From Mytilus trossulus (lineage: Eukaryota), in contig NC_086386.1 of assembly GCF_036588685.1 (NCBI RefSeq), positions 21,452,001-21,516,000 of the forward strand: DNA of 64,000 nt, in the 5' to 3' direction. Both the position numbers and the translations under genes were made by a program. The notes beneath the pieces were generated by a model. The model made no database searches, was not told the origin of the DNA, and worked only from the letters and a program-made list of their open reading frames with translations. Positions 2,880 through 46,700 of the stretch are shown here, piece by piece; position 1 is the stretch's first letter, and the number at the start of each line of letters is the position of its first letter.

Positions 2880-2995
2880 GGCGATGCTCACATACATTTT
2901 TGTAATCAACAAACCGCGTTAACCACCCAAGTCAGCATGCTCTCAGCTTATACATCAGACCAAATCCACCACAAACAATGGCATGCTCTTGTATA
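2880..2995. repeat. Degenerate (older) minisatellite units at the A/B boundary
   Basis: ttatacatcagaccaaatccaccacaaacaatggcatgctcttgtata aligns ungapped to the A consensus at 36/48 positions. Identical copy at 5769-5884. Confidence 0.75.
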
Positions 2996-5008
2996 AAACA
3001 ACAGACAGCATCAATCAACAACCCTGCCATACTTACGTCAACAACAGACAACATCAATCAACAACCCTACCATACTTACGTCAACAACAGACAACATCAA
3101 TCAACAACCTTACCATACATACGTCAACAACAGACAGCATCAATCAACAACCCTACCATACTTACATCAACAACAGACAACATCAATCAACAACCCTACC
3201 ATACTTACATCAACAACAGACAACATCAATCAACAACCCTACCATACATACGTCAACAACAGAACCCTACCATACTAACGTCAACAACAGACAACATCAA
3301 TCAACAACCCTACCATACTTACGTCAACAACAGACAGCATCAATCAACAACCCTACCATACTTACGTCAACAACAGACAACATCAATCAACAACCCTACC
3401 ATACTTACGTCAACAGCAGACAACATCAATCAACAACCCTACCATACTTACGTCAACAACAGACAACATCAATCAACAACCTAACCATACTTACGTCAAC
3501 AACAGAAAGCATCAATCAACAACCCTACCATACTTACATCAACAACAGACAACATCAATCAACAACCCTACCATACCTACGTCAACAACAGAAAGCATCA
3601 ATCAACAACCCTACCATACTTACATCAACAACAGACAACATCAATCAACAACCCTACCATACTTACGTCAACATTAGACAACATCAATCAACAACACTAC
3701 CATACTTACGTCAACAACAGACAACATCAATCAACAACCCTACCATACTTACGTCAACAACAGACAACATCAATCAACAACCCTACCATACTTACGTCAA
3801 CAACAGAAAGCATCAATCAACAACACTACCATACTTACATCAACAACAGACAACATCAATCAACAACCCTACCATACTTACGTCAACAACAGACAACATC
3901 AATCAACAACCCTACCATACCTACGTCAACAACAGAATGCATCAATCAACAACCCTTCCATACCTACATCAACAACATACAACATCAATCAACAACCCTA
4001 CCATACATACGTCAACAACAGACAACATCAATCAACAACACTACCATACTTACGTCAACAACAGACAACATCAATCAACAACCCTACCATACTTACGTCA
4101 ACAACAGACAACATCAATCAACAACACTACCATACTTACGTCAACAACAGAAAGCATCAATCAACAACCCTACCATACTTACGTCAACAACAGACAACAT
4201 CAATCAACAACCCTACCATACTTACGTCAACAACAGAAAGCATCAATCAACAACCCTACCATACTTACATCAACAACAGACAACATCAATCAACAACCCT
4301 ACCATACTTACTTCAACAACAGACAACATCAATCAACAACACTACCATACTTACGTCAACAACAGACAACATCAATCAACAACCCTACCATACTTACGTC
4401 AACAACAGACAACATCAATCAACAACACTACCATACTTACGTCAACAACAGAAAGCATCAATCAACAACCCTACCATACTTACGTCAACAACAGACAACA
4501 TCAATCAACAACCCTACCATACTTACGTCAACAACAGAAAGCATCAATCAACAACCCTACCATACTTACATCAACAACAGACAACATCAATCAACAACCC
4601 TACCATACCTTCGTCAACAGCAGACAACATCAATCAACAACCCTACCATACTTACGTCAACAACAGACAGCATCAATCAACAACCCTACCATACTTACGT
4701 CAACAACAGACAACATCAATCAACAACCCTGCCATACTTACGTCAACAGCAGACAACATCAATCAACAACCCTACCATACTTAGGTCAACAACAGACAAC
4801 ATCAATCAACAACCCTACCTTACTTACGTCAACAACAGACAGCATCAATCAACAACCCTACCATACTTACGTCAACAACAGACAACATCAATCAACAACC
4901 TTACCATACTTACGTCAACAACAGAAAGCATCAATCAACAACCCTACCATACTTACATCAACAACAGACAACATCAATCAACAACCCTACCATACCTACG
5001 TCAACAGC
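2996..5008. repeat. 43-bp minisatellite, subfamily B (consensus acagacaacatcaatcaacaaccctaccatacttacgtcaaca)
   Basis: Tandem units; consensus differs from subfamily A at 8 of 43 positions. Confidence 0.97.
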
Positions 5009-5768
5009 AGACAACATCAACCACCAACACTACCATACCCACGTTTACAACAGACAATATCAACCACCAAAACTACCATATCCACTTAATACAACAGACA
5101 ACATCAACCACCAACACTACCATACCCATGTATACAACAGACAACATCAACCACCAACACTATTATACCCACGTTTACAACAGACAATATCAACCACCAA
5201 CACTACCATATCCATGTATACAACAGACAACATAAACCACCAAGACTACCATATCCACGTTTACAACAGACATCAACCACCAATACTACCATATCCACTT
5301 ATACAACAGACAATATCAACCACCAACACTACCATACCCACGTTTACAACAGACAATATCAACCACCAACACTACCATATCCATGTATATAACAGACAAC
5401 ATAAACCACCAAGACTACCATATCCACGTTTACAACAGACATCAACCACCAATACTACCATATCCACTTATACAACAGACAATATCAACCACCAACACTA
5501 CCATACCCACGTTTACAACAGACAATATCAACCACCAACACTACCATATCCATGTATACAACAGACAACATAAACCACCAACACTACCATACCCACGTAT
5601 ACAACAGACAACATAAACCACCAACACTACCATATCCACGTATACAACAGACAACATAAACCACCAACACTACCATATCCACGTATACAACAGACAACAT
5701 AAACCACCAACACTACCATACCCACGTTTACAACAGACAATATCAACCACCAACACTACCATACCCAC
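5009..5768. repeat. 43-bp minisatellite, subfamily A (second block, copy of ~2120-2879)
   Basis: Unit-by-unit variants match 2120-2879 at offset 2889. Confidence 0.95.
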
Positions 5769-5884
5769 GGCGATGCTCACATACATTTTTGTAATCAACA
5801 AACCGCGTTAACCACCCAAGTCAGCATGCTCTCAGCTTATACATCAGACCAAATCCACCACAAACAATGGCATGCTCTTGTATA

Positions 5885-8800
5885 AAACAACAGACAGCAT
5901 CAATCAACAACCCTGCCATACTTACGTCAACAACAGACAACATCAATCAACAACCCTACCATACTTACGTCAACAACAGACAACATCAATCAACAACCTT
6001 ACCATACATACGTCAACAACAGACAGCATCAATCAACAACCCTACCATACTTACATCAACAACAGACAACATCAATCAACAACCCTACCATACTTACATC
6101 AACAACAGACAACATCAATCAACAACCCTACCATACATACGTCAACAACAGAACCCTACCATACTAACGTCAACAACAGACAACATCAATCAACAACCCT
6201 ACCATACTTACGTCAACAACAGACAGCATCAATCAACAACCCTACCATACTTACGTCAACAACAGACAACATCAATCAACAACCCTACCATACTTACGTC
6301 AACAGCAGACAACATCAATCAACAACCCTACCATACTTACGTCAACAACAGACAACATCAATCAACAACCTAACCATACTTACGTCAACAACAGAAAGCA
6401 TCAATCAACAACCCTACCATACTTACATCAACAACAGACAACATCAATCAACAACCCTACCATACCTACGTCAACAACAGAAAGCATCAATCAACAACCC
6501 TACCATACTTACATCAACAACAGACAACATCAATCAACAACCCTACCATACTTACGTCAACATTAGACAACATCAATCAACAACACTACCATACTTACGT
6601 CAACAACAGACAACATCAATCAACAACCCTACCATACTTACGTCAACAACAGACAACATCAATCAACAACCCTACCATACTTACGTCAACAACAGAAAGC
6701 ATCAATCAACAACACTACCATACTTACATCAACAACAGACAACATCAATCAACAACCCTACCATACTTACGTCAACAACAGACAACATCAATCAACAACC
6801 CTACCATACCTACGTCAACAACAGAATGCATCAATCAACAACCCTTCCATACCTACATCAACAACAGACAACATCAATCAACAACCCTACCATACATACG
6901 TCAACAACAGACAACATCAATCAACAACACTACCATACTTACGTCAACAACAGACAACATCAATCAACAACCCTACCATACTTACGTCAACAACAGACAA
7001 CATCAATCAACAACACTACCATACTTACGTCAACAACAGAAAGCATCAATCAACAACCCTACCATACTTACGTCAACAACAGACAACATCAATCAACAAC
7101 CCTACCATACTTACGTCAACAACAGAAAGCATCAATCAACAACCCTACCATACTTACATCAACAACAGACAACATCAATCAACAACCCTACCATACTTAC
7201 GTCAACAACAGACAACATCAATCAACAACACTACCATACTTACGTCAACAACAGACAACATCAATCAACAACCCTACCATACTTACGTCAACAACAGACA
7301 ACATCAATCAACAACACTACCATACTTACGTCAACAACAGAAAGCATCAATCAACAACCCTACCATACTTACGTCAACAACAGACAACATCAATCAACAA
7401 CCCTACCATACTTACGTCAACAACAGAAAGCATCAATCAACAACCCTACCATACTTACATCAACAACAGACAACATCAATCAACAACCCTACCATACCTT
7501 CGTCAACAGCAGACAACATCAATCAACAACCCTACCATACTTACGTCAACAACAGACAGCATCAATCAACAACCCTACCATACTTACGTCAACAACAGAC
7601 AACATCAATCAACAACTCTGCCATACTTACGTCAACAGCAGACAACATCAATCAACAACCCTACCATACTTAGGTCAACAACAGACAACATCAATCAACA
7701 ACCCTACCTTACTTACGTCAACAACAGACAGCATCAATCAACAACCCTACCATACTTACGTCAACAACAGACAACATCAATCAACAACCTTACCATACTT
7801 ACGTCAACAACAGAAAGCATCAATCAACAACCCTACCATACTTACATCAACAACAGACAACATCAATCAACAACCCTACCATACCTACGTCAACAGCAGA
7901 CAACATCAATCAACAACCCTACCATACTTACGTCAACAACAGACAGCATCAATCAACAACCCTACCATACTTACGTCAACAACAGACAACATCAATCAAC
8001 AACCCTGCCATACTTACGTCAACAGCAGACAACATCAATCAACAACCCTACCATACTTACGTCAACAACAGACAACATCAATCAACAACCCTACCATACT
8101 TACGTCAACAACAGACAGCATCAATAAACAACCCTACCATACTTACGTCAACAACAGACAACATCAATCAACAACCTTACCATACTTACGTCAACAACAG
8201 ACAACATCAATCAACAACCCTACCATACTTACGTCAACAACAGACAACATCAATCAACAACCCTACCGTACTTACGTCAACAACAGACAACATCAATCAA
8301 CAACCCTGCATACTTACGTCAACAGCAGACAACATCAATCAACAACCCTACCATACTTACGTCAACAACAGACAACATCAATCAACAACCCTACCATACT
8401 TACGTCAACAACAGAAAGCATCAATCAACAACACTACCATACTTACGTCAACAACAGACAACATCAATCAACAACCCTACCATACTTACGTCAACAACAG
8501 ACAACATCAATCAACAACCTTACCATACTTACGTCAACAACAGACAGCATCAATCAACAACCCTACCATACTTACGTCAACAACAGACAACATCAATCAA
8601 CAACCCTACCATACTTACGTCAACAACAGACAGCATCAATCAACAACCCTACCATACTTACGTCAACAACAGACAGCATCAATCACCAACCCTACCATAC
8701 TTACGTCAACAACAGACAACATCAATCACCAACCCTACCATACTTACGTCAACAACAGACAACATCAATCACCAACCCTACCATACTTACGTCAACAACA

Positions 8801-8960
8801 GACAACATCAATCAACAACCCTACCATACTTACGTCAACAACAGACAACATCAATCAACAACCCTACCATACTTACGTCAACAACAGACAACATCAATCA
8901 CCAACCCTACCATACTTACGTCAACAACAGACAACATCAATCATCAAGTTGAACCCTACA
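5885..8960. repeat. 43-bp minisatellite, subfamily B (second block)
   Basis: 5885-7897 copies 2996-5008; the array then continues and decays at ~8945-8980. Confidence 0.96.
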
Positions 8961-14639: not shown

Positions 14640-15037
14640 CACCTTTTGTTAGCTTTTATTCGTGTGTTTTTCTGTCCTAATGTTCTCCCATTTTTTTTGT
14701 ATTGTAGTCCTATCATGTACTGTTGTCATTTTAATGTTATATTTAACATTGACATAAAAGTGGGAAGTTTAGCATGCCAAAAAAAATCAGATTCAACCCA
14801 CCACTTTTTGTTAAAATGTCCTGTACCAAGTCAGGAAAATGGTCATTGTTATATATCATAGTTTGTTTCTGTGTGTGTTACATTTTGATGTTGTGTCTCT
14901 GTTGTGTTTCTGTTGTGTCGTTGTTCTCCTTTTATATTTGATGTGTTTCCCTCAGTTTTAGTTTGAAGCCGGATTTGATTTTTTCTCAATCGATTTATGA
15001 ATTTTGAACAGCGGTATACTTCTGTTGCATATATTTG
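14640..15037 (+). repeat. Interspersed repeat, cctgtaccaagtcaggaa family
   Basis: Closely matches 25515-25787. Core motif also at 18858, 37110, 38635 (-), 41497 and 49308. Confidence 0.75.
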
Positions 15038-18599: not shown

Positions 18600-18998
18600 A
18601 ATGAAGTTGTTAAAATTGATGTATGCCTGTTTGTGCTTCTTTGTTACATTTGTTTGTTTTAATAGTGAACAGATTAGGTTAATTACACAATGTTGACATG
18701 ATGTACCCTTATTTTTGAAATGTGTACCTATTGTGTCTGTTTGTTTTGTTCACGCATCGTTGTCAATATAATGGAATTCGATGCGACTGCCATACAAGTG
18801 AGGAGTTTAGCTAGCTTTAAAACCAGGTTCAATCCAACATTTTGTACATAAGAAATGCCTGTACCAAGTCAGGAATACGACAGTTGTTATCCATTTGTTT
18901 GATGTGTTTGATCTTTTGATTTTTCCATTTGATTACAAGGTATGAACTTTTCTTTTTGAATTTTCCTCTGAGTTTAGTATTTTGTGATTTTATTTTTT
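18600..18998 (+). repeat. Interspersed repeat, cctgtaccaagtcaggaa family
   Basis: Matches 36945-37245, 49205-49444 and the reverse copy at 61880-62100. Confidence 0.75.
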
Positions 18999-21900
18999 TT
19001 AAATATTGTGAAGCAATCTGGAAAATCTGGGTAGCAATAACAGAGTGAATTGAATTTTTTCCCATCTTATAGTCTTGAGTTCATACCTTTGTATAGAAAA
19101 CACCTTTTTTTTAATTTCATTTTTAGTATCATAAAACATGTGAAAAACACTTCGAGATTTACAAAAAGAATCAATAAACACTAACGACGCAAAATCACTG
19201 ACTTAGTAAAGACAATTGTAGTGAAGACATATCATTAAACTCATTCATAAATACAACTTAATGAACTGATTTATGAATGAACTGAGGTTATTTAAGACTC
19301 ATATTTGCACCAACACTTCAATCCCTATTGTGCATGCTAATTGGTGTGTTTATCTTAATACATATAATACCTCACCCGATTGCTTTTATGATTGATGAAT
19401 AATTTATGTGAAATGATTTTTTGAAATAGTACATGACCGCAACTGAAAAGGGGTTTTGAACTACAAGCTGAAAAGTAATAAAGGACGCAAAGAAATATAA
19501 ATATAACTTTAAGAAGATATATCATAACGACACGGACTTGACCGGTATTTAATGGTGTAAATGCAGAAATTACAAAGTTAAAAGTCCGAATTCTTTTCGC
19601 ACATATGATTAATCAAAACCACAACTTCTCGAACCCGAGACTGTCCATCTGCAGCTATGTTAATACTAGTACTAAATATATCCAGTCGCTGTACTTTGAT
19701 CTGGCGTACCATTTAGAAACATTTTTGTTGTTTAATTGATATAGCTTGGTTTTAAGTAGTGTCGAGCTTCATTATATACGCAGTCGATGTATACTTTGTA
19801 TGTGTTTGCTATTAAATAAAATCATTTTAAAGTTACATTTAACAAATAATATCTGTATATGAACAGAATTGTAGTTGGTAGTAAAGTAAATTAATACAAA
19901 GCTTCGTAAAGTATTGAATACATAATAAGATGTGGTATATTTTTTATTTAGAAAACTCTTCCGCATAAACCAAATGACATTAACGTTAACAGCTATAGGT
20001 CAGAGTACAGCTTATATGTATAGATTTTCTCAATTTAAAATGTTTTTCAATTTTTATTTTATTTATCAGATATATAGTTAGAATTATCAAAACGTCGAAC
20101 AGAAAGGGAAATCAAGATAAACAGGATAAATGCAGCTAAACTTTCGTCAAACAATGAACTCTAATGACAGCGATCACTCTCTATAATATACCGCACTTAC
20201 CAGTTCCATTGTTGTTCCTAATAACAAATACCTACGTTATTCCGTTGGACTTCAAAATTCACCAACGTTTGAATGTTTTCACTGCCCTGGTAATTGTAGT
20301 CGTTGTGTTGTTACTGTCACGATACCAATTTACTACTGATACCTCTTTTTAAATTCCAGTTTACCAATCAATTTCAAATTTTATATACTTTAATCTAAAA
20401 GTAGATAATTTCTGTCACACGTCAGACTTGTGATATTTGTTTCCATTCGTTTGGTGTGTTTGAGGTTTTGATTTTGCCATTTGTTCAGGCACTGTCCTTT
20501 TTAAATTTTCCATGGAGTTCGGTAGCTTTGTTATTTTACCTATTCCAATCTAGTCTATATACTAGACCCTTAGAAGACGTATTCATATACGCAAACCGTC
20601 TCTGAGAGAGATAAAATGAGAAGTGTTTACATGTAAACTTACAAGTCTAGAATATGCTTTTCTGGCTTATTTATTAGAATAATCTGATAACATAGTTGAT
20701 TTGAATAAACTGATCATGCAATTATGGTTCTTTTTTTGGTATACCCGCGACTTCATTGCAAACCAATTGCGACGACTGTATATTTCATTAAGTTAAATTC
20801 AGCAATTACATAAGTACAGTATCGCACATGGTATAAACAAAACTTTATTATAATGACCGCTGTTGGTACAAATTCGTTAAAATATTACAAATTACTACAT
20901 TATCTAACATTTGTAAAAAAAAAATATTTATGTAAAAAAATAAACAACATAGTAATACAATCAACATCTTAGAGGTAAAATTGTAACATACATGTGTGAT
21001 ACATCTGGTTTTCAAAAATATAACTTTGATACATGTCTATACATAACACGAATTGGTGAAGTTGACACATGTAACGATTTGCCCAGAACAACTGGGGAAA
21101 TTACTTCTTTCTTAAGTCATTTACAAAGCTAAAATGCTCTGATATCGGAGTTTGAATAACGTATATTCAATACAACAAAGTAATTTAAACTTAAAAAATA
21201 AACAATGCACCGATTAATGTAATGCAAAAGTTATACTAAACTCGTATAACATCCGTGTACCATATTCTAATGTAGTGTTAAACGTACAAGAGAAAAGGAC
21301 TCCTCATATCGTGTCAGTTTTAATATGGTTGTTAACACAATCTTTCCTTTACGAAATTAACTTTAAAATATGAATTCAGTTTTTATATGTCTAGTGTAAA
21401 TTACTTTCTTTTGTTATGGTGGTTAATACAATTGTATGATTCATTGTCAACTTTAAACGTTTACCATAAGAGAGATTGAAATCTTAAATTTTATACATTC
21501 AATATCTGTACATGTTTAAATTAGTTCAGAGTGTCTTCAATTAAATACGTTACAATGAGAAAATTATTACAGTACATTCCGTCTACTTTCTAAACAATTC
21601 AGCTCGTTAGATATTGTTTGAAGAAGAATGTTTAATAAGATGTATTTCTAAGATATAAGCCACTATAGAATTCACTGTACGGCCTTCAGCAATGAGCCAA
21701 ACCAATGATATCGTATAGAAAGCTTAATTACAAAATGTTGAACGTGTCACACAATGAAAAAAACGACCTGATTTGTGTACAAAAATAGCGAAAGACTCAT
21801 ATCATAGACCACTAAAATGTATGATCTTGACTTGCAAAAGACATTAACAGAATGTATGCTCTTACTTTTTGTCGAAAGTCTTTTTTTTTTTTACATGTAA

Positions 21901-23164: not shown

Positions 23165-23442
23165 TCAGTTATGTATCGGTGGTAGCGGTTTAGTACGTAT
23201 GGCTGAGCTTGTTGGTGGTCGCGGTTGTTCGGGTAATGGCGTTAGATTTCTTCTCAATGCATCATTTAGAGGTTCTGGCTGTTGGTAAATCGTTGATGTC
23301 ATAGCAAATGGAGAATTGGAGTTTGCAAGATGCCTCGTCTTTTCATCTAAGGTTCTGTCGTTTTCCAGACATTCAACGCTTATTTTGTCTTGTCTAGAAA
23401 CCAGTTTTGGTCTCGAGTTATAATCATTTGAATTTGGATTTT
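23165..23442 (-). CDS. Gene A exon 11 (Pro-rich tail ending KPLPPIHN*)
   Basis: ttcttacag acceptor, open frame to TGA. Confidence 0.85.
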
Positions 23443-26400
23443 CTGTAAGAAATATAACTAATCGTTTCAATACAATTTATTTTTATTTTTATATAATGAA
23501 CATTAACAAAAATATTAACAATATACACACAGCGTGCAATAAGTATTAAAAATATTAACAAACAAATAAAAACAGTTAAAACTGATAACAAAAAACTTAA
23601 CGCAATTAACATCATATGTAATTTCTATTACTATATTGCTCCATTGGTATTGCCCTGTCACGTGGCGATAAAGAATCTACAACTAAATCATCCGACATGG
23701 TTGGTTCTCTCTTCAAATTTAATTCTGAAATGAAGAGAGAACTGCTGTTGTAGATCATCAGTATCGCCGCAATTATGTTTTATATTTACAAGTATAACCA
23801 TCTTATTTGTTTGTGTACTGTCAAAAGGTCAGATTGATGTCTTCTTCCACCGATTTGTTGTTTTATATTAAAATATCCCTTGGTTTTGTTTGTATGCTTT
23901 CATAACAGTTCATATTCATAAAATGTGTTTATAAGCGAATTAAATAATTATCTTCACAGCATGTTGGAATTAAAATAACAATTCGTGCATATTAAATAAA
24001 ACTTTTCTTTCCTAAGCTAGATAGATTTGTAAGAAAAATCATAAAAAAATTCCCTCTTTTATAACCACTGGTTCGATGCCTCTGCTGGTGGACATTTTGT
24101 CCCCGAGGACATCATCCGCCCAGTAGCAAAATTACAATTGGCAATGCATAAAATTACGAAGATGAGTTTTGATCACATCTGTTTTATCGAACTTGTAATA
24201 AAACAATTACAAATTATTCATATCTATATATAACGGTACATGTACCTGTAAAAGTCTAATAGTCGGCTGCAAACCAAATTTATGTGCCAAAAGATACGAA
24301 TTCAATTATCTAATTGTGAACTTATTTGTATGATATGAGGATTGGTGTATGTGCCTAAAACATCCGATAACTGGATAAAGTACAACCTTTAATAGTTTGT
24401 CTTTTCAATAATTACAATTTGTTTGTCGTTTATTTGTCCCTTACCTGAAAGTGTAAAATCTGAATCTGGTGGTAGAGGCTGCTTGATATCGGTGCAATTT
24501 CCTTTCATTGACTGTCTATGCTGAATTTGTGATTTCTTTCCTTTGAAGTATTTCTGATATATGAGGAAAGCAATAATAATGATAGCTATCAGCAATAGTA
24601 TTGACAGGACAGCCCCCACCACTGCTGCTGTGTTACTACCACTTGAAGAACTTTCGCCTGTTGAGGGGTTAGTAATGCTGCTATCGTTGCTAGATGTCGT
24701 AGGCATCATGGTAGTAGTTGAAGTCGTTGTTGTAAATACTGTGAAAAGGATATAAACTTTTCGATTAAAAGAACCATATACATTGTACATTCAAGAAATT
24801 AAATAATCAACGAATAACACATTTTATATAGGCGTGTGTGCAGCCTTCGACAAAACCTCGAAATTAAATATCCCTGAACATTAATACCAATGAAAATACA
24901 TGCATCCACCGAAACTTCAAGTCACATCAGTTTGCAATTAAGCTTTCCTATCATTGTCTTTTTTAAATTCAGGTTTATTGTCTTGTTGTACAGCATGTGT
25001 TTTTGCACTGTTATGTGTAATGTCCATAGGCGGATTCAGGAGGAAAACTTTGGTTGATTATAAAGGGAATCACTGAAGCATGACTGGAGTGCCTCCCTTA
25101 GGTCAGTCAACGCCCCCTCCCCCACCCCTTTATGAAAAGTTCTGGATCCGCATCTGATGTCATGCATGCTTAACATACTTATAAGGTCTAACTTTTTCTT
25201 TCTTAAGTGAGCGTATTATCAAAACGTTAAAAACAACCGATTATTTTTCAAAAGGTACCATATTTATTGTCTTTAAATAAACTCATCATATATACCAGGA
25301 TTGAGATTTTATATTTATGCCAGACGAAACCACCGAAATGTTATTCTTACCGAAGGTAAAACTATTGCTGGAATTTTCTATTGAATTTTAAAAAGACTAT
25401 GATCAGCAATTATCAATTAAAACAAATGATTAAGATATTGATTACTAGCATCTGTGAATGCATTAAAGGGCATGTGAATCTTCTTTTATATTCTATCTTA
25501 ACATAATTAAACACTGCCATAAAAGCAGGAGGTTTGGCTAGCCACACAATCAGGTTCAAACCACAATTTTTTCAAAATATCCTGTACTAAGTCAGGAAAA
25601 TGGCAATGTTTATATTACAGTTCGTTTCTGTGTGTATGTTACATTTTAGTGTTGGGTTTCTGTTGTGCCGTACTTCTCCTGTTATATTTGATGTGTTTCC
25701 CTCAGTTTTGGTTATGTAACCCGGATTTATTTTTTTCTCAATCGATTTATGAATTTCCAACAGCGGTATACTACTGTTGCCTTTATCTAAGCTTGTTAGA
25801 AAAACATTTAATTATATCTAAAACATCTAAAAGCTCTTAAAGACTACTTACGACATGTTTCTGAAATAAATGAAAAACTAGTCATTAGTGTAATCAGAGA
25901 TAATTAAAGACCGATATGTTTCCGATTGTTTTCTCGTGTATTACTTCGGGATTAAAAGACTAGACAAATTGTTTCGACCGTTATATTTGTCCATAATAAG
26001 GTGCCATACAATTTAGAGTATTCAATTACAAAAACACGACTTGTATGCGAGTTGTTTAAAATCCAGTGAAATGACAATCTCAGAATTCAAATATGATTAT
26101 AGCTATTAAAAAGTCTACTTAGAAATAATGATTTGGCTAAAAGAATTCACAATTATGTGTACTTCGATATTTGAATTATTAAGAATAAAAATATGGGTGG
26201 CATTGGTTGTATTTAAGAAACGTAAAACGTCCTCGTGGATATTTAGTTTAAAAGATTTTTATATTTGCATCTTTTTATTTACAATACGTATGTGTTCAGA
26301 TACGTTTATTTGTTTGGAACCAGGTCTTCACTATTCAGTTTTGTGATTGCATATTGTGTTACGATTTTAAATGTAACGGATCAGATCAACGGCAAATAGT

Positions 26401-29400
26401 ACGGTAACCGTTGTAATTAAATAGCAGGAACAATACACAACATTTAGTATTGTTCAAAAAAATTTGCAGACAGTTTCAGTTTATTACAAAGCATTAAATT
26501 TCATTTACATAACATCAGTTTGGTTTTAAAAATAACATACCATATTCTGTCAACGTAATGAGTAAACTGTCAGCATGTGATGTTCTACTTGATGGAACTT
26601 GATTAGCTGCACATCCGCCAGGATTTGTACTAATGGAACGAGAACTACCAGACTGTAATACCGCCTGAAAAAATAGCTTTCTATAAAAAAGAATCTGCAT
26701 TTACAGTTTGTAATAGTTATGAAAGGTACCAGGACTGTAATTTAAGGATGTATTCTCCTGTTCAGTCTCGTTGTAATCTTGTTCTTAAATTATTTCCAAA
26801 ACATGTGATACAAGTGGACAACATGAGTGAATTTTAACAAATATTATAATCAAACATAACTCTGTGAAAAAATTGTGTATTTACAATGAATGAATTTCGA
26901 GTAATCCAGTTTTCAAATTTTACAACCAATCAATAGATATAGGAAGATGTAGTGTGTGCCAATGAGACAACTCTCAATGCAAATAAGAATTTAAAAAAGT
27001 AAACCATAATATACAAGTCTGTATTTTTAGCCAAAATTTTGAGAAAATGGGTGATCGATACAAAAAAATGATTTTAAAAGAATCATATACATCCAATATC
27101 ATTTTGGTCTTTTCAAATTTCTTAGATATGTATTTTTTTCAATCATTTATACCAAAAAAGTTGAAATACTATGCATTTTGTTCTTAAAACTGCGAAAAAT
27201 CACAAAAATTACAAATTTGACAGCATTGTAAATTGTACACAAAAAGCGTCAAAATATGATTAAACTTTCTTATATTAACGCCTACCTATAGTTTTTTTCA
27301 AGTAAAATTTATTCAGATTGGCCTACTTCATCTTTATAGAAAGTATGAAAAAAAGTTTAGTTGTGGAACTGTGATTTTTTTCACGATAATAACCCAAAAA
27401 TAAGTAAAAATCGATAAAAAATGTGAAATCATCAAAATTGTGCATTTTCAAAGAGCCGTAGCAAAAAAATAAAGTGTAACACCAAAGGATTTTTTCTTTA
27501 CCAATTGTTTTGTTACAGTCTTATAAACCCAAAAAATCAGGTTAAGGAAAAAAAGTTTAATTCTAGAAATGTTTGGCTCCTCGAAGGTGTTCACCCTTAA
27601 TACACCAGACGCTCGTTTCGTCTACATGAGACTCATCAGTGATGGTCAGATCAAAATAGTCATAAAGCCAAACAAGTACAAGGTAAAACTAACAGGTTCT
27701 GAATATAATATATATATCGCAGAAATAATGAAATATGCTTTGTAAGCTATACAACAAATTATCTATACAAAATATAAACATAAACAAACTAAAAATAAAT
27801 GCCATTATCACAAATGTGTGAACTGCTCAACAAATCTGACTACCAATTTTCATTTTCGTTAATCAAAATCTAGTAAATACAAGCTTTTGAACATGTAGCT
27901 TAGCGTTTGTTTTTTTTTTTTTTTTTGTAAATTCGGTATTATTTTGAAAAAATATAAAACTAAGTAGCAAAATCAAAAACCCAGAGCATTTTGTTGTCTA
28001 TTATGTCGAAGAATATACGTGAAGAAGGTCGATGCTAAAAAAATATAAATGTCAATCAAATATTCGTCTTAATATGCTTTCATAAATATCAACGAAGACT
28101 GCTTGACATCCTGCTTTAGTCGTTGTGAAGCTTTAGTGAATTGTAAAATTTTGCTTCATATTTAACACTGTGGCTGTAAGATAACTAAAAGCAGTCAAAG
28201 TGCAGTTCAATTGCCTTTTCTTATCATCTGAAACCAGCAAAATGATTCTTAAAAATGTATTATGGTTAATTGTACTTACAATACATGTGAAAATTGGAGC
28301 TGTTCCATCAGAATTTATCAGAATGGTGTAGTATGTTGATCCAGTAGCAGTCACATTTGCCACATTATAGAACAATCCGATGGCTAGAAAAACAGATTGC
28401 AAAATAGGTTATACATAAACTGATCCAAACTAAATGGGATTTGAAATCACGTAAAAGACCTATCGGTGCACTACGTTTGATATCGACTCTTTGCACGGAA
28501 TGTTGTCTCTTTGATATAGTCCTCTTTTCCGTTCTTTTTTTCGAGTGCATACATTTATATTAAAAGTTCTCAGTGAATGCAGAACTCAAATAAAGGTAAC
28601 TGTTTTGAATTTGAATATGGGAAGCTACTCGACATTTGTTAACACTAAATTAGATTAAATATGCATTAAAGAAATAAAAAAAACAGTTTGATACACGAAT
28701 AAATGTGTTTGTTCGAATTCAATTTGTTATAATATAGTTTTTCAAGTAAGGAGATATTTTTCAAAATAACTTGCAGATCAGAATTTGGTGCTTTCGTTGT
28801 TTGTTGTTGGTCAGATGTTTTGCAGATTTATTACTGACTTTGTACCGATTGTTCATGTATATTGCACTTGTTCGGACTTTTTTGGTTTGTTAATAAATTA
28901 CAGATCCAGTTTCATTTGACTGACTTTTTGAGGAATTACAATTAAATGTTCATGTTCGGTCCTTTGACCTATTATGAAGTATAATATAAGGAGAACTATG
29001 TGTGTCCAGCCTATAAATATTATATATATTCGTGTCGAGTCGGTAAATATATGTTTTTCTAAATTGTCAATAGCTACCATTGCAGAATGAAATGTTAGAC
29101 ATGTTAGATGAGCAAGTATGATTTAATATTTAATTTATATCAACAGAAAACATGATTTCGCGCATCTTAGCAGCATAGGGGTAAACACGGCCATTCTCTG
29201 TATACATCTCAGCGGTCGTCAAATTAATCTAATGAAACTTCCTGTGCCTCTGTTAGCTTTGAGAATATATTATTACCTTTTTTTTTATTATCCAAGCAAA
29301 CAAGTCTATATAACCAGTGAAATGATAAAAATTAAATTAAAAAAAAACACAGAAAAGCTTTACTTACTATTTTTTGTAAAATTATGAAACAGCAATAACC

Positions 29401-32400
29401 AATACAATTTTTAAACGTGAAAATCAAATTTTGAATTCAACAAGAAAAGAACTCACTGGAACCCATAACCGTTGTTGCACAAGTTGTGTAGTTTAAAACA
29501 GCAGTGGTTCTGTCTATATCTCCATTCACATAGCATCCGTCCCAGACAGATCCTGTTCCACATGATGTACTGGAACCGTCATTAACAGTGTAGGAAAACA
29601 CTCCAAGAAGAGGATCAGGAAAGTACTGCTCGAGGTGAACAGATTGTTGCATATCTTTAAAAAATGTTAGTTATTGTCAATTATTGTTCTTTTTCAAATA
29701 ATACATGTAGATGACGAAAATGAGGATGGCTGTTGACAATGGCTGGTAAATTTACTGCATATTTTCGATAAGAAAATTCAGATTAACCTTTTGTTTATTT
29801 TATTTTTTGTTTCTAAGATTTTCCTAATCATATCATAATAGTATTTCTTGTGTTACAAGATATTCCATGTTATACGTGACGGTGTGATTAAGGGTATGCA
29901 TGCTTCTGCCGCCAATTAATCTCAGAAATTGCTAGTTCTTATTCGATATTCTTTACATATGAATCTGTTTTGTTCACACTAAACCTATAGTTAAATTCAA
30001 AGGATTGTCAAATGATTTAAAAGTATGTAAATCATTTAATACGAATGCACCATACATTATAATTTATTTGAATTTAAGCAAAACACGATGATTTTCAGAT
30101 AATATAACGAATTACTAACTTCATCATTTTTACTCACTTTCCTTTACTAAAACATTATATTCTCCTGTGGCTGGACCATTCGTATGATTACAATACTGTG
30201 CAGTACTAGTGTAACTTGGATCTTGTAACCGATCTAATAGGAAAACTCTCTGACCGGTAAAATCTTCCACATCTGGGAATAGAAAATAGTCTAATCAAGA
30301 CGATGTACAATAACGAGCATAACACACTTTATTCAACCGATTTCATGAAATCATATAATGTTGTGTGTAAATACTATGATGTGTATTTTTGGATAACACA
30401 GGTGTCAGTACCGCGCTGGCGCTTGCGCCCGTTGTAAAGGGGTAGATTCACAATTAAATATATATATATATTGAATAATCATATAAAACATATTACCCTT
30501 TCAAAAGGGCCTTTGTAAACCTCATCGTTTTTTTATAGTTTATTTATGATCGCCGACACAAAATAGGACTTTGCTAATTTATTGTTGAAGATATTTATGC
30601 AGAAACTGCTGCAATTTTGTTAAATACGTTGTGTTGTCGTCGTGCAGAAACAAATGCATACATTGTAGATACTTTCAGGCTACTGGCCTGTTTGAAGTGC
30701 ACAATATGTTTATGTAGTTGATTTTATGTAATATCAATGATATCAATGTGTTTTGCCATGATATGAATAGGAGGCAATATTTTTGATATGTATTAACCTT
30801 AATGAACAACAAACGAAAATGTAATGACAACTTACTAGACCGCACATAATATGAATAGCTGTTGGTTGTTAGGCTACTATATTCCAGACAATAGACGGCA
30901 TAATAATCCACTCCGAACAAATGATTGTGAGTATCACTTCTGTTAAATTAAGACATGTAATTAAAATTAATAATTTTAACCGACCAATATTCATTATAAT
31001 TTTTTAGATTATTTCTTATAAATTATGCATATTGATGATTTGTAAATGATTAAAAATGTTAAACATCAAATAAGTCAAGCACCTGAGATCACCCCCAGTT
31101 TTGGTGGGGTTCGTGTTGTTTATTCTTTAGTGTTCTATGTTGTGTCATGTGTACTGTTGTTTTTCTGTTTGTCTTTTTCATTTTTAGCTATGGCATTGTC
31201 AGTTTATTTTCGACTTATGAGTTTGACGGTCCCTTTGATATCTTTCGTCCCTCTTTTTCAATATACATACATCGAGATAGAGACCAAAGACACACTCAGA
31301 TAATTATGATTATTTCAACAGACACTAATATTCCTTCAACAGACACTAATAATACTTCAAAAGAACTTATAGGCCAACACCAACAAACCATTCTATAATA
31401 TTAAAACCATCAATAATTCTATGTGAATAAGCACATGGTATAATACTAACTTTTAGCACTTATTCGAAATCATTTTAAATCGTTTTTAACATTAAACTGG
31501 TGGTCAAGATCTTAATAAGGTGCTATTATAGTATTCTTTTATATGTCTTTATGAATATAAATTTTACTGATTAGTCTCAGTGTTATTTTGGTGGTATCCA
31601 TTAGATGTGGCTCTGTACTTATACATCCCGTTATTGTTATACGATATTGTTTGTATTATTGTCTCTCAATTTTGTTAAATTATGCTTTTTCTGTATGCCT
31701 TTATGTGTTTCTTGGTTTCTTATGAAGCCACGGTGGCTCTGTACTTAAATATCCCGTCATTGTGTAATGTTCATACGATGATATATGTTGTTTGAATGTG
31801 TGTCTTTTTGTGTAGACAAGACTAACAAATGTAAACACAAGACTAGAGCAAATAGTCTGACCACCCCAAGGATCTCTCTATATATATATATCTTACATAT
31901 GTCGTATCTCGAAAATCAAAGAGCAAACGCATATCACGTATCAACTGATATACGTTTACTACTTACAAATCACCACCCCCTATGGATCCATTGAGGGTTA
32001 GTAAACTTGAAGGGATTAGAATAAACACAAACAATGAAATGCAATAAGATTTAAAAATATTGAAATAGAAGACGTGACGTCATGATACCCGTATCAAATA
32101 GACTGACAGGCCTAACAGGATCAATAGGGAGTCGGCATTTTAACTCTGAAGGAAAGTTGTCTCATAGACAATAATTCTCACCGTTCTATTTTTTTTCTGT
32201 GCTACAGCTAATTGAACATGTGTAGTGTAAAATATAGTAAAATATAGTAATTCAGTTTCCTGTGTATTTTCTATCTCAAAAAAGTGGACGATACGTTGTC
32301 GAAATCTTGAGTTAATATACGTGCATTTTTTATTTGTTAATCAATTGTTTTTAACAGTTACAGCGGGTAAGCGGGAGTAGACCATAGATATTCACAAAGA

Positions 32401-33773
32401 ATTCTTTTCGAATGTTTGTGAGAATTAAAGAAAATTTTACCATTTTTTTTAATTCTTAAATACAAGAGTTTAATTCACGCCATTGAACTAAAAGATCATA
32501 CCGAAATACTAGATAAGAGGAATCACTTTCAACACAGGTAAAAGTGTTCCATATAGCAGCATTGATTGTGAGTTGCCAGCCACTTGAAACTGCCAATGAA
32601 TTAAAAGTAACAACTCCATTGGTTCGACTGTCCCACCAATTTCCTGTCAGTTGTGACGGAAGAGTACAAGCACATTCTGGAAAAGAATGAATAAATTGAA
32701 AAATATCTATTGTCTCTTTCTCTTTATTTTTGTTTACTGAAATACACGTGTTTCCTGATAAATTCTTGTGAACCAACTTTAGACTTTTTTAATTAAATCA
32801 TTCGATTTGCCCTATTCATGAGTCGTATACGACATCTTACTGTACAGCTGCCGATATCAGATTGTGAGAATATACGATTTCTTGAAACTTTTGAACTTGC
32901 TTTCAAAGACGTTGAGACTATTTTGCAGTAAAAAAACAAGGACACGTTGGTTATGAGACAGTATTAACTGAATGACAAAAATAACCAAAACTTATTAAGC
33001 AGCTCAATACAGAATTTATTTCCACACACACGGTTAGAAAATTGTTTAAAAGATACTAGCTTTTTGTGCAATATATTTATTGTTGAAAGGACAAGGCAAG
33101 AAAGGGCCTGTGTTTGGCCCCCCTATTTTCTAATTTTTCAAATTCTGTTTTGGAAAGCTACTAATCTTATAGATTTGAAGTTTGTTTGGATGAATTTTAA
33201 AACCATTATTTTCAGAAAAAAGGGTGAGGTGAGTGGGTAAAAGGGCATAAAAAAACGGCAAAATAAGGGAAAAACTTACGATTTTCTGGTCATTATTTCT
33301 TAACATTCGATAGGGTGCGCCTACGTGACCAAAGGAATGTTACGTCGATTTAGACAGCAAAAACAGTGCTAATGACATTGGTGGGGCACTTAAAAACTAA
33401 AAATTCGTGGTACAAACACCTTCATTATGAATGATCATTACAATATTTGAATAATAACAGAAAGTTTACCCCCGTCACCAAAATTATTGGTTTTCAAGTT
33501 CATCCAAACAAACTTCAAGCATCAGGGAATATTTTAACATAATGAATCACTGTAGCTTTCCAAAACAAAATTTGAAAAATGAGAAAATAGGGGGCCAAAA
33601 AGGGCCTTATCGTACCTTGTCCTTTCTAAAATTAGCAGGTATATACGGTGAGTATTATTGCAAGACTAAGTACACTATCATTACAGTTAGATAGTTCAAT
33701 ATAGTGACTTACCAAATTCAGTAAGAAATGTAGAGAAGGAATAAATTACAATAAATGATATTCCTCTATACAT
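23165..33773 (-). CDS. Gene A: uncharacterised type I single-pass membrane protein with Cys-rich (DUF7044/DUF7042-like) ectodomain, 11 coding exons, ~524 aa
   Basis: Exons 33773-33713, 32676-32502, 30939-30836, 30272-30138, 29654-29457, 28383-28280, 26664-26541, 25860-25852, 24738-24445, 23724-23632, 23442-23165. All introns are GT-AG with compatible phases (1,2,1,1,1,0,1,1,1,1); 1575 nt open to TGA. Exon-by-exon homology to gene B. The domain name is from recalled motif pattern only. Confidence 0.88.
23632..23724 (-). CDS. Gene A exon 10 (cytoplasmic, LNLKREPTMSDD...)
   Basis: Strong acceptor tctcttcatttcag; weak A|GTAATA donor in the required phase. Confidence 0.65.
24445..24738 (-). CDS. 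Gene A exon 9 (Ser/Thr stalk, TM helix, basic stop-transfer)
   Basis: ttttcacag / GTAAGG; TM AAVVGAVLSILLLIAIIIIAFLIY followed by QKYFKGKK. Confidence 0.93.
25025..25156. mobile_element. Small MITE with hAT-like ends (cataggcggattcag...ctggatccgcatctg)
   Basis: Imperfect 15-bp TIRs; atgtc directly repeated on both sides. Confidence 0.65.
25515..25787 (+). repeat. Interspersed repeat, cctgtaccaagtcaggaa family
   Basis: Matches 14755-15037. Confidence 0.75.
25852..25860 (-). CDS. Gene A exon 8, 9-nt microexon (E-T-C)
   Basis: tttatttcag|AAACATGTC|gtaagt; counterpart at 44443-44451. Confidence 0.85.
26541..26664 (-). CDS. Gene A exon 7 (AVLQSGSS...GGC...LTEY)
   Basis: ttttcag / GTATGT; phase 0-1. 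Confidence 0.9.
26746..27596. mobile_element. Non-autonomous DNA transposon with TTAA target duplication (Kolobok-like GG...CC ends), inserted in another repeat
   Basis: TTAA at 26742-26745 and 27597-27600. Joining the flanks restores the actcatcagtga-family repeat seen uninterrupted at 55313-55390. Confidence 0.72.
28280..28383 (-). CDS. Gene A exon 6 (IGLFYNVANV...FTCI)
   Basis: ttttctag / GTAAGT; 104 nt as in the paralog. Confidence 0.9.
29457..29654 (-). CDS. Gene A exon 5 (FPDPLLGVFSYT...WDGC...NYTTC...GS)
   Basis: aaag / GTGAGT; homologous to 47803-47982. Confidence 0.92.
30138..30272 (-). CDS. Gene A exon 4 (VEDFTGQRVF...CNHTNGPATGEYNVLVKE)
   Basis: ttcccag / GTGAGT; paralog ends in FHVLVKE. 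Confidence 0.92.
30836..30939 (-). CDS. Gene A exon 3 (SDTHNHLFGVDYYAVYCLEY...YYVRS)
   Basis: aacag / GTAAGT; 104 nt, same length as the paralog exon. Confidence 0.92.
31078..31258 (+). repeat. SINE-like interspersed repeat (agcacctgagatcaccc family)
   Basis: Reverse copy at ~57130-57340; partial copies at ~44940-45070 and ~49455-49585. Confidence 0.7.
32502..32676 (-). CDS. Gene A exon 2 (ECACTLPSQLTGNWWDS...CVESDSSYLVF)
   Basis: ttttccag acceptor, GTATGA donor; homologous to 54810-54987. Confidence 0.92.
33085..33626. mobile_element. MITE with ~130-bp terminal inverted repeats in gene A intron 1
   Basis: gaaaggacaagg...ttttggaaagctac...gtttgtttggatgaa versus ttcatccaaacaaac...gtagctttccaaaa...ccttgtcctttc. 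Confidence 0.85.
33713..33773 (-). CDS. Gene A exon 1 (signal peptide MYRGISFIVIYSFSTFLTEF)
   Basis: acaatATG start, hydrophobic peptide, G|GTAAGT donor in phase 1. Confidence 0.78.
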
Positions 33774-36255: not shown

Positions 36256-36940
36256 CATTGCCTATGAAAAATTTTTAAAATTGTTTGTATGCACATTGAA
36301 CATCAAATTTATGTGACGTATATAATTTTTCTAACGTCAGACACTCAAATCAATCCATGTGTTCTTAGACAGTAGATGTTATTGTGTCCTGTTAAATTGT
36401 TCCCTTTAAAAAGTTTTGGATTCTCATATATTCTATGTATAATTTTTGGACTAGTTTAAATCTCGGTCTATTTCTGTAATTTATTCTTACATACTTTTGA
36501 TTTTTTAACCTGTATGCGTACGTTGCCTATGTAAATTTTAAAATATTGTTTGTATGCACATTGAACGACAAATTTATGTGACGTATATAATTTTTCTGAC
36601 GTCGGACACTCAAGTAGATCCATGTGTTCGTGGATAGGTTTTTGTGTCCTGTTAAATTGTTCCTTTTAAAAGTTTTGGATTCTCATAAATTCGATGTATA
36701 ACTTTTGGACTAGTTTGATTTCTGTAATTTATTCTTACATACTTTTGATTTTTTTAACCCTGTCTGCGCTCATTGCCTATGTAAAATTTAAAATTGTTTA
36801 TAATCCAGGTACTTTGGATAACTATTGTATGCACATTGAACGACAAATTTATGTGACGTATATAATTTTTCTGACGTCAGACACTCAAATCAATCCATGT
36901 GTTCGTAGATAGTAGATGTTGTTGTGTCCTGTTAAATTGT
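36256..36940. repeat. Tandem repeat, ~250-265-bp unit, ~2.7 copies
   Basis: Units start at 36256, 36521 and 36771 (ttgcctatg...gtatgcacattgaac...gtgtcctgttaaattgtt). Confidence 0.9.
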
Positions 36941-36944
36941 TATA

Positions 36945-37245
36945 CGATGATGACGACTGATGTTCCCATATTTTGACTATTTTATTGATTGTGACTGTTT
37001 ATTTAACGCATCATGTAAATGTAACGGAATTTGATGAGACTGTTATTAAAGTGAGAGGGTTAGCGCTATAGAACCAGGTTTAATCCACCATTTTCTACAT
37101 TTTAAAATGCCTGTACCAAGTCAGGAATATCACAGTTCTTGTCCATTCGTTTTTGATGCGTTTTGTTTTTTGATTTTGCCATGTGATTATGGACTTTCCA
37201 AATTGATTTTCCTCTGAGTTCAGTATTTTTGTGATTTTACTTTTC
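36945..37245 (+). repeat. Interspersed repeat, cctgtaccaagtcaggaa family
   Basis: Matches 18700-18995 and 49285-49444. Confidence 0.75.
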
Positions 37246-40675: not shown

Positions 40676-40797
40676 TTATGTTCTTGTAATTGATGGTAGT
40701 GGTTGATTTTTATTTTCATCCAGAGGTGGAAGCGAGTTATTCTTTTCTTTTGGCGTCTGTATATCAACTACGACCTTTGGAGATGATGGATCGATCG
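40676..40797 (-). CDS. Gene B exon 11 (IDPSSPKVVVDI...QPLPSITRT*)
   Basis: ttgttacag acceptor, phase 1; C-terminal motif resembles gene A KPLPPI. Confidence 0.78.
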
Positions 40798-43700: not shown

Positions 43701-46700
43701 AATGGCTGCTGTCACTTTAACGTATAACATAATGGTCCTTCTATTATTCAATCATAAAAAGTTATTTCCAATTTATTTCTTACCGTCAAAACCTTAATCT
43801 AGCAATTGGTGACAGAAGAACAGTTTACCTTACTTAGAATATCGACCCAGTTTCAAGCTTCAAAATGCATGAATGCTTCAATAATTTCTTATTTGGTACA
43901 TTGTTAATATGCACGCTTGTAATTTGATATATCATTTACCTGGTTTTTCGGCATTTTCCTCTGATCCATTCTGTACTTTTGATTTTTGCCACGGGAACGG
44001 TTTTTTCTTATATTTATGGTAAAATATAAATCCACCAATAGCTCCCGCTATTAAAAGGATTAGTACAACAACTACGCCAGCTATAATTCCTACATTAGAT
44101 GAGGAGGACGCGGCCGATGCTGTCGTAAATGCTGTATAAACAGTAAAAAAACTAACTTCTAAATATGCACAAACCTTGAGTAATGGTTAAAAAAATGGGT
44201 ATATTATTAAAACAAATACACTTAAAAAATTTCAACAAATTTTAATTTAAATAAAGGAATAATAATATCTTGAAGGTATGTGTTTTACATGAAAATTTTA
44301 TGTTGGTTATTTGTTAGTAATATTTTTCCAATTGCGCAAATTTATAAACGTAAATCTTTTAAAGTTTACTAGAATATTCCTTTTGACATTTTTATTTACA
44401 TACAAGATGAAGAAAACAGAACAAAAATCATGATTTACTTACGACAGGTTTCTGGAAAAGAAAAAGACAAATATATTAGATAATTGTAGCTATCAACATG
44501 ATCAAATAAGACATAAAAAGAGCAATACACACACAAATACATGTACATAAAAGTACGTCCAAATCTAACATTATGCAATATATAGATATCTGTGTGTGAC
44601 TATAAAAGCTTTCAATTGGTAAATGAAATAAGTATCGGATCGTTCAAAACGGTGATGCTACAAAAACAGGAATAAAATATGAAAAAAACATTATGAAGAT
44701 TTGCTACAATAAAACTGATCTATAAAAAAAATCATATACAAATCGGATGAATGAAATCATATAGACAAATATATGTCGGCGCAAATGCCATTCTTCCTTG
44801 TTATAATCTTCGAATTCTGTACAAATTATCTTTCAACTGTTCCTCAAATTTGATTATCAGTAATTCAAAACAAACAGTGGACCTATTTTACGATGTTGTG
44901 ATACTTGGATCTAAGGGCAATGTTTTGTTTATACGACGAAACACGATCGACCCTGTCTTTTAATTGTTTGTCATTCACTTCTGATTCGCTGTTTTAATGT
45001 TTGAAATTTGCCGAGTCAATTGATCTCTACATGAGTTTTGAATGTCCCCTTAGTATCTCTTCCTCCTGTCCCTTTTTTTGTAAGGAGAATGCATAAAAAA
45101 TGTATTGGTAAAACTAAAATAGTTGTACTTATGACAATGGGAATACCAATAGAACAATGACTAAAAACCATTAATGATCAAACTATGTGTATGCTGACAT
45201 TAAATATTGCCTACCGTAAGCTGATAGCGATATTACAACACTTGATGAATCTGATGTATTGGTAGTGGCGGACTGTCCCTTTACACAGCTTCCTGTATTG
45301 GAGCTGACTGAAGAACCTGATACAGCCTAAAATTATTTTACATAAAATAGTTATAAAAATATCTTGACGGAATTATCAACCTAATTGCCTGACATAAAGT
45401 GAACGGTTGTTATGTATTAACATTTGTCTTGGCGTTACAAGATATGAGTTAATTAGGTATATTGGTTATAGAATCCGTTAATATATTTATCTCGAAACTT
45501 GCATTGCATATTCAAATATAGCTATGATAAGTGCATATAGTATTGCTTTTGACATTTGGAAATGTAATTATTGTTGTGACAAAGCTCAACATATGTTAGA
45601 TGTGTTGTTAGTTTATATATTTAATTATCATATGAATATAATTACCAAACAGGTGAATCTTTTACTCGTAGACGAATCTGCATTGATAATGATAACATAA
45701 CTAGTAGATCCAGAAGTAACGTATTTTGTGGCGTAAAACTCACCACCGGCTGCAATAAAAGAAATACTATATTGTCATTCAGATTGAATTAAAAATAAGT
45801 AAAACAACAGTTGTAATAGAAACTGTGTTCTCTTTAAACTTATTACGTGGTTTTTATGGCATTTTTCTAGCACTTTTATGCAGGTTTTTGTTTGTCTTTT
45901 CTGATGTTCTCTCCGCCATATTTCTATTGATTTGTCGTCAACTCAAGCTAACTCATGGATTAAGAATTACCCATGGTATCTTTTCTGTTTTTGTTTTGAA
46001 CTAAGGTATCTAAATCACAGGCATGTAGTATTGTAACTTTACAAAACATTATCAAATGAGCACAGAAAAGGACACTTTTTTTAATATATATATTTTTATT
46101 TTCCTATCATTCCAAAGTCTCATCTACAAATACAGATGTAATAAGTATCAATATCTGACCATTTTCTTTTTATCTTATTACTTTATTTTTCGAACACAAC
46201 TTATAGAGCCCATGTCAATCCTATGATAATATCTAAGCCATTCAATTGCTTCAGTTACAGTAGACTGTAAATCTTACTAGACATATTAGTAAATATATAT
46301 TTTCAATATCGGAATACATGTATTACAAATATCTTTAAATACATGATATGTTATCATTCAAGATTATACCTGATAAAGATGGGTAAAAATGATACTACAT
46401 AAAACCTCCAATTTAAAAAAAAAAGTTAAATCTGATTGTTCGAATATATCCTCATTCAAAAAGATATGTATAGATGTTTCTTTTGTTTCTGTACAAAACG
46501 TGCACAGTTCTGTTTCACATTTCATAAGTTAAGTAATATTTGTTCCTAGAGTTCTATGCAGCAATCTACATTGAAATGCCCTCAATGAGGGATCATTGGT
46601 TATAAGTAAATGAAGACTAAAAAAACTCCATTCTTTAGCCACAATATCGATTCCTAGTTTTATTTTTTTCATTTTGCTTGTATGAGAGATGGAGTTTCCT

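Follow-up and report, generated by a model that had tools for sequence, protein, structure and literature searches.

Two neighbouring genes in the analysed window (the whole 64,000-nt stretch of Mytilus trossulus DNA) each contain an exon of nine nucleotides that encodes a cysteine close to the end of an extracellular domain. The question raised by this locus is whether the exon acts as a splicing switch, the skipping of which would leave a free thiol in the protein, or forms a constant part of the coding sequence. We consider it highly probable that the exon is real and likely constitutive, that the last cysteine of a predicted two-barrel ectodomain comes from it, and that this cysteine likely pairs with Cys199.

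Organization of the two tandem genes

Genes A and B are arranged in tandem on the minus strand. Their products are 47% identical (154 of 331 aligned residues), and the intron phases are alike from exon 2 to exon 9 (Table 1). Gene A spans positions 33773 to 23165, and gene B extends from an exon 1 located outside the window to approximately position 40682. Judged by their sequences, both products are DUF7042-type single-pass membrane proteins with a common layout: (i) a signal peptide, (ii) an ectodomain of about 280 residues, (iii) a Ser/Thr stalk, (iv) one membrane helix, which occupies residues 338-366 in the predicted model of the orthologue P0001, and (v) a tail. Pro-rich motifs end the tail of gene A. 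The named M. trossulus model P0004 corresponds to gene A over exons 1-3, and the gene B product is identical to the named model P0070 at 306 of 336 residues. P0008, a close relative known from transcripts, has the same three microexon residues. Self-BLAST and six-frame comparison recovered repeats and only some of the exons.

Table 1. Coordinates of the features of genes A and B (window positions unless another contig is named)
Feature	Position	Strand	Basis or remark
Gene A coding exon 1, signal peptide	33713..33773	-	residues 1-20 of named protein P0004, identical
Gene A exon 2, Cys22/24/68	32502..32676	-	RNA joint 30939/32502
Gene A exon 3, Cys96	30836..30939	-	RNA contig pieces
Gene A exon 4, Cys141	30138..30272	-	RNA joint 29654/30138
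Gene A exon 5, Cys190/199/217	29457..29654	-	Cys199 codon at 29535-29533
Gene A exon 6, Cys258	28280..28383	-	RNA joint 26663/28279, cut +1
Gene A exon 7, Cys277 and most of the last barrel strand	26541..26664	-	sequence, RNA contigs
Branch-point-like CTAAT, A at -25 from microexon A	25884..25888	-	motif scan, inferred
Gene A exon 8, 9-nt microexon, phase 1-1, E-T-C, Cys303	25852..25860	-	sequence; RNA contigs of X6, X7, X12, X8
Gene A exon 9, Ser/Thr-rich stalk, transmembrane helix and tail start	24445..24738	-	sequence, RNA contigs
Gene A tail exon, 63 nt, likely optional	23662..23724	-	in gene model P0005, not in P0001
Gene A last coding exon	23165..23442	-	followed by contig cover consistent with 3' UTR
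Gene B exon 1	L023:7300-7238		outside the window
Gene B exons 2-5	54987-54810, 50060-49957, 49034-48897, 47982-47803	-	open frame, GT-AG sites
Gene B exons 6-7 and 9	45749-45646, 45326-45215, 44131-43940	-	open frame, GT-AG sites
Branch-point-like CTAAT, A at -25 from microexon B	44475..44479	-	motif scan, inferred
Gene B exon 8, paralogous 9-nt microexon, E-T-C	44443..44451	-	sequence and homology
Gene B candidate alternative tail exons	~42444-42412, 40798-40682	-	tblastn with gene models P0070 and P0201 only

A 9-nt exon preserved between diverged introns

In gene A, the exon reads AAACATGTC, preceded by cag and followed by gtaagt (25860-25852, minus strand), and in gene B it reads AAACCTGTC within the same flanks (44451-44443, minus strand). 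Both 9-mers stand on the minus strand where the preliminary description had placed them, with AG and GT borders; as it had stated, their sole difference is synonymous (Thr), and their splice sites are strong, as judged by agreement with the consensus alone. Both exons are internal, at most 15 nt long and flanked by canonical splice sites, as coding microexons are, and that of gene A is also present in spliced RNA. The donor of exon 7 and the acceptor of exon 9 are both of phase 1, and in each gene the exon between them is of phase 1-1. Inclusion reads Y-E-T-C-L-F in A and Y-E-T-C-P-F in B; skipping preserves the frame, as described, and reads Y-V-F and Y-A-F, respectively.

Comparison of the exon 7-9 intervals of the two genes gave the microexon with its splice sites as the best local alignment; its score of 38 was reached by none of 100 shuffles, the best of which scored 37. 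The flanking introns proved otherwise unalignable, as had been claimed, since 15 of 100 and 66 of 100 shuffles scored as well. When window positions 9001-64000 were scanned with a pattern, set post hoc, that describes Cys-coding exons of 9 nt and consensus splice sites, the two microexons were the sole matches; shuffled copies gave 0.02 matches each (200 shuffles).

A motif scan of five mussel paralogues found in every one a branch-like motif at -23 to -29 and a donor of the form GT(A/G)AGT; the 20 nt adjoining the AG contain 13-17 pyrimidines. The trinucleotide TGC is absent between the branch-like motif and the AG in all five, the nearest copies being found at -73 (gene B) and -84 (the paralogue on L022).

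Paralogues and conservation

Three further two-barrel genes, each with a 9-nt Cys exon, were found in the genome G000 (L018:3514, L022:700 and C14:7733415), a count that comes from one protein query of that genome. In each of them, the microexon follows the last barrel exon and precedes the membrane exon. The paralogues are located on contig C14 of G000 at 7.71-7.74 Mb and 8.16-8.18 Mb (L017-L022), and two of them face each other. Weak barrel 1 matches on the same contig, L014 and L015, are possibly further members of the family.

The last cysteine is kept in 62 of the 68 homologues that have a residue at this site, and the other nine mature cysteines in 79-90 of 90 rows. In oyster, transcripts carry I-T-C at a point where some gene models are without these residues, and three pairs of clam models differ by three residues ending in Cys at the microexon site. 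The exon is likely common to mussels, oysters and probably clams, which would make it an old microexon; the proteins, rather than their DNA, suggest such bivalve-wide sharing. In limpet, an intron likely follows the cysteine. In the phylogenetic tree, A and B fall inside a supported 9-row clade of mussel-type sequences, and the deep branches are open. Some long homologues (P0069, P0073 and others) have the unit repeated, or fused to Sushi or collagen-like regions.

Predicted fold and the partner of the last cysteine

Counted from the start Met, cysteines are found at positions 22, 24, 68, 96, 141, 190, 199, 217, 258, 277 and 303. The column of Cys22 holds a cysteine in only 9 of 78 homologues, and Cys22 likely leaves with the signal peptide. 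If it is lost with the predicted signal peptide, the ectodomain of both genes has ten cysteines with the exon and nine without it, in agreement with the original count.

An AlphaFold model of the orthologue P0003, built with 90 sequences (mean pLDDT 92.9, pTM 0.88), predicts two 8-stranded beta-barrels followed by the Ser/Thr stalk and one membrane helix. The last strand comprises residues 294-302; Glu and Thr of the microexon end this strand, and Cys303 comes next. The preliminary description had proposed a disulfide at the boundary of domain and stalk, and a switch that frees a thiol there. An intrachain bond at the end of the folded domain is indeed likely, whereas the switch finds no support. 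The partner cysteine, which had been left to structure prediction, is likely Cys199, as judged from strand topology and one shift in pLDDT; we regard a Cys199-Cys303 pair as probable. Strand alternation would group Cys190, Cys217, Cys258 and Cys277 together at one end of barrel 2, with Cys199 and Cys303 at the opposite end, and the complete predicted pairing would be 24-68, 96-141, 190-217, 258-277 and 199-303.

The skip-form orthologue P0001, modelled with the same 89 rows, differs from P0003 next to Cys199: block 201-210, which adjoins this residue, drops from 93 to 80 pLDDT and is the only ectodomain block that falls by more than 10, a shift confounded by a Tyr-to-Gly loop difference between the two orthologues. 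The last strand stops earlier in this model. True losses of Cys199 and Cys303 are few among the homologues. A homodimer prediction (two copies of residues 22-304, run without an alignment) scored 0.00 against a mark of 0.32, which is no evidence either way.

An additional cysteine pair helps to assign the cysteines of barrel 1. Across 85 homologues, both members of this pair are present in 61, neither in 16 and only one in eight; A and B have neither, and one of the three additional paralogues retains the pair. Its first cysteine lies in the same motif as Cys24, and the 24-68 pair is therefore supported, although the barrel 1/barrel 2 profile match behind this argument is weak (P = 0.066).

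It is also conceivable, if improbable, that the exon is constitutive but that Cys303 pairs with Cys24 across the barrels, as in APCDD1, or with another chain. This alternative overlaps the preferred explanation on splicing and differs in the partner alone. In its favour, APCDD1 has an interdomain Cys52-Cys466 bond according to the available text of PMC10193966, it is among the fold matches of barrel 2, and two homologues have the Cys24 equivalent without the Cys68 equivalent. However, the block containing Cys24 is steady in the skip-form model (88 vs 87) and it is the block after Cys199 that falls; the barrel 2 cysteine in the Cys24-type motif co-occurs with a mid-barrel cysteine; and strand parity would bring residues 199 and 303 together, as described above.

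Foldseek returned no clear match (best E 9e-4, TM 0.18), and VIA-align returned generic barrels only (best Z 8.6, rmsd 2.8, 97 aligned). The matches cover residues 171-301, less often 25-160, and are to 8-stranded lipocalin- and streptavidin-like barrels; barrel 1 was hardly probed on its own in these searches. From the lipocalin-like barrels of the model one might tentatively guess that the family are surface binders of a small hydrophobic ligand.

The likeness to APCDD1 (PDB 8E0R) extends over several features: as far as the available text of PMC10193966 describes it, APCDD1 crosses the membrane once, contains a tandem pair of beta-barrels and several disulfides, and has its last cysteine just past the final strand. 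Two tandem beta-barrels and one membrane helix are likewise found in the mussel predicted models. Barrel 2 matched the ABD2 domain of APCDD1 with Z 6.3 (rmsd 3.3, 114 residues, 9% identity, 17th of the best 50), a score that lies under 8 and below those of bacterial and designed barrels (best 8.6), and only one barrel aligns. The mussel protein is smaller (about 280 vs 418 residues), and its inferred disulfide layout differs. APCDD1 has twelve cysteines with a first-to-last interdomain bond; A and B have ten, and the additional pair is present in the 61 of 85 homologues mentioned above. Invertebrate homologues of APCDD1 are described in the available text of the same publication as having 25-40% ectodomain similarity. 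No APCDD1 chain was found among the 10 PDB sequence matches at E <= 1, no APCDD1-named family was present among the 13 Pfam families matched by the 90 members, and the literature records, available in part, yielded nothing relevant on APCDD1 in molluscs. Given a middling fold match and no sequence match, membership in the APCDD1 family was not assigned.

Inclusion of the exon in transcripts

Fourteen runs are on record, all of them assembled contigs whose RNA origin was guessed and for which there is no tissue record; six were aligned, to gene A. GT-AG joints in the gene A contigs identify them as spliced RNA. The 9 nt are present in all six contigs seen to connect exons 7 and 9, and none of them joins these two exons directly (four runs from four studies). 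X6 contributed one of these contigs, X7 two and X12 two, the pairs in X7 and X12 representing two alleles; in the X8 contig the 9 nt are present at the depth of the flanks (40.9, among the joints listed). The run X1 has no joint, yet two of its contigs carry nine extra letters before 26541, at the end of exon 7. One X6 contig of 1289 nt passes unbroken through the microexon and ends at the exon 9 donor; contigs end at this position (24445) in four of four runs, and it is here that gene models diverge through the likely optional tail exon. No intron-retaining contig was seen for gene A in these four runs, whose contigs leave the bins at 25812-26483 without cover. Contigs lose rare isoforms and give no PSI; they demonstrate presence, not absence.

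Transcript-derived (Logan) homologues from oyster and mussel, taken from the protein set P0001-P0068, give the same picture. The three residues are included in 41 of 42 proteins (36 oyster-type and five mussel-type), none has the skip form, and the remaining one runs off after exon 7. Being near-copies that derive from few genes, the 41 do not count as independent events, and one homologue cluster of 58 members was represented by 15 of them. The 36 oyster-type proteins show four tail types, so the Logan data can capture alternative splicing. In these genes alternative splicing appears to act on the cytoplasmic tail instead, and inclusion of the microexon is likely constitutive in gene A.

These data bear directly on the proposed switch, in which some cells would skip the exon and the freed Cys199 would lead to covalent dimers or to retention in the ER. 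The exon is frame-preserving, the skip form is seen in nine of 26 gene models (including two from RefSeq), and its fold is still predicted with high confidence for the greater part of the ectodomain; besides, contigs cannot prove absence. Nevertheless, we rate such regulation as very unlikely. Not one skipped junction is present in the six gene A contigs or the 42 transcript-derived proteins, the DNA holds the exon for every skip-form model checked (P0001, P0070, P0012 and P0078), and the family gains and loses cysteines in pairs. The splice architecture also argues against the switch: the usual mark of neurally regulated microexons, a TGC between the branch-like motif and the AG, is missing in five of five paralogues. 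The evidence approaches the complete inclusion at which the proposal of a switch would fail, though rare or cell-type-specific skipping could escape contigs.

Gene models around the exon

The 26 genome-based models comprise nine with the skip form, nine that include the exon, three that read through the exon 7 donor and five that stop short of the junction; three of the nine including models then read through the microexon donor. In total, 15 of the 21 models that reach the junction are affected, being split, truncated or one cysteine short. Skip forms were found solely among genome-based gene models, examples being the RefSeq models P0009 and P0055 and, for the closest orthologue, both of its models (P0001 and P0005). 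For all skip-form models with a checkable counterpart in G000 (the four named above), the exon is present in the DNA. A late cysteine is lacking in 11 of 46 homologues with a membrane helix, and the one that was traced, P0070, is a gene model. Database proteins of the skip form and truncated ones are likely annotation errors around an exon that is hard to map. A single unmapped 9-nt exon would explain mollusc DUF7042 models that are split, falsely secreted or short of a cysteine, and corrected models would yield a family of two-barrel membrane proteins with paired cysteines.

Truncated models admit a second reading, namely that read-through of the microexon donor produces E-T-C-R-K-stop, i.e. 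a soluble, secreted ectodomain with all ten cysteines. In A (25851-25844) and in B (44442-44435), both on the minus strand, the microexon is followed by R-K-stop, and an AATAAA lies 121 nt (A) and 47 nt (B) into the intron. Three RefSeq models end alike: P0003, which is orthologous to gene A, and the oyster models P0041 and P0042. Nine further proteins, chosen for ends just past the last cysteine, are all RefSeq models and come from five mollusc genera besides Mytilus, plus limpet. However, none of the 42 Logan proteins ends in this way. Sister models (P0006, P0061, P0062 and P0197-P0200) stop via read-through of the upstream donor instead, and breaks on either side are what is expected of annotation failing at an unmappable exon. 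Moreover, R-K is dictated by the donor consensus, two other paralogues lack an immediate stop (17 and 10 residues), and AATAAA is common in DNA of 70% AT. There is little chance, in our estimate, that a secreted isoform of this kind exists.

That the 9 nt are a chance splice-like sequence and no exon is scarcely credible: they are joined between exons 7 and 9 in contigs of four runs, which rules this out for gene A, and the exon is kept in five paralogues.

Proposed mechanism

Returning to the constitutive exon, we propose that default splicing would include it by means of the consensus donor, the pyrimidine tract beside the AG and the branch-like motif at -23 to -29. Cys303 would then close a fifth disulfide and fasten barrel 2 at the end from which the stalk emerges. 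Selection against an unpaired cysteine would keep both exon and splice signals intact between diverging introns; in other words, the exon would persist because its loss leaves a cysteine unpaired.

A composite reading would make the exon a decision point, at which splicing gives the membrane form, donor read-through a secreted C-R-K decoy, and rare skipping a free thiol. We find this distinctly improbable. If a secreted or skipped isoform were real, an unstudied, expanded mollusc family would have its balance of receptor and decoy controlled at the level of splicing. At present, the significance of the exon lies mainly in annotation and evolution.

Comparison with known microexons and with DUF7042

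Conserved 9-nt phase-1 coding microexons are described for plant invertase and AP2 genes in the available text of PMC8831610. As presented there, they share with the mussel exons their length, phase, conserved motif, usual inclusion and frequent misannotation. They differ in belonging to another kingdom and other families, and in their motif, which is catalytic or DNA-binding, whereas the mussel one is likely a disulfide cysteine at the border of domain and stalk.

Neural microexons dependent on SRRM3/4 are characterized, in the available part of bioRxiv 10.1101/2024.09.17.613571, by a distant branch point and pyrimidine tract and by UGC before the AG in 74-79% of cases, the UGC not being strictly required. 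Compared with that description, the mussel microexons are similarly short and frame-preserving, with a strong 5' splice site. Unlike the SRRM3/4 (eMIC) type, they have a tract directly beside the AG, with a branch-like motif at -23 to -29, and no TGC in any of five paralogues; the gene A exon is included in every assembly seen to span it. The mussel exons differ from a regulated microexon of the eMIC type in two sequence features, as the motif scan found neither the UGC nor the distant branch point and tract. The literature, as far as the sources were available, held nothing relevant on mollusc or bivalve microexons, or on constitutive microexons that supply a cysteine or disulfide.

The Pfam family DUF7042 (PF23069; cut-off 27 bits) is matched by the orthologue P0001 with 30.4 bits and by the paralogue P0002 with 27.5 bits; the closest orthologue P0003 scores 25.5 bits, just below the cut-off. 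It is barrel 2 that matches DUF7042, an entry accompanied by DUF7043 and DUF7044, and 75 of 90 homologues match it at E <= 0.001. The top cluster in the ESM Atlas is a mollusc DUF7042 family (0.94). Members of the present subfamily differ from the DUF7042 entry in carrying a pair of barrels together with a stalk and a single membrane helix. In a search with supplements and subscription journals outside its scope, no paper naming DUF7042 and none on the oyster locus LOC105344726 was found.

Repeats in and around the genes

Intron 2 of gene B contains near-identical local duplications (>99%) at window positions 51042-53756, the duplicated pairs being 51042-51324 with 51778-52060 and 51391-51782 with 53365-53756; they reflect either a recent event or an assembly artefact. 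Dispersed intronic repeats occur on both strands (14741-15034, 18683-19003, 25506-25786, 36940-37244 and others) and are heavily covered by unrelated contigs; they are likely remnants of mobile elements. Window positions 12-8947 are taken up by a tandem array with a 43-bp unit, present in about 207 copies and strongly skewed between the strands, which continues into L024. Some of its frames give long Thr-rich or His/Pro-rich repeats, and the array is either a satellite or a mucin-like coding repeat.
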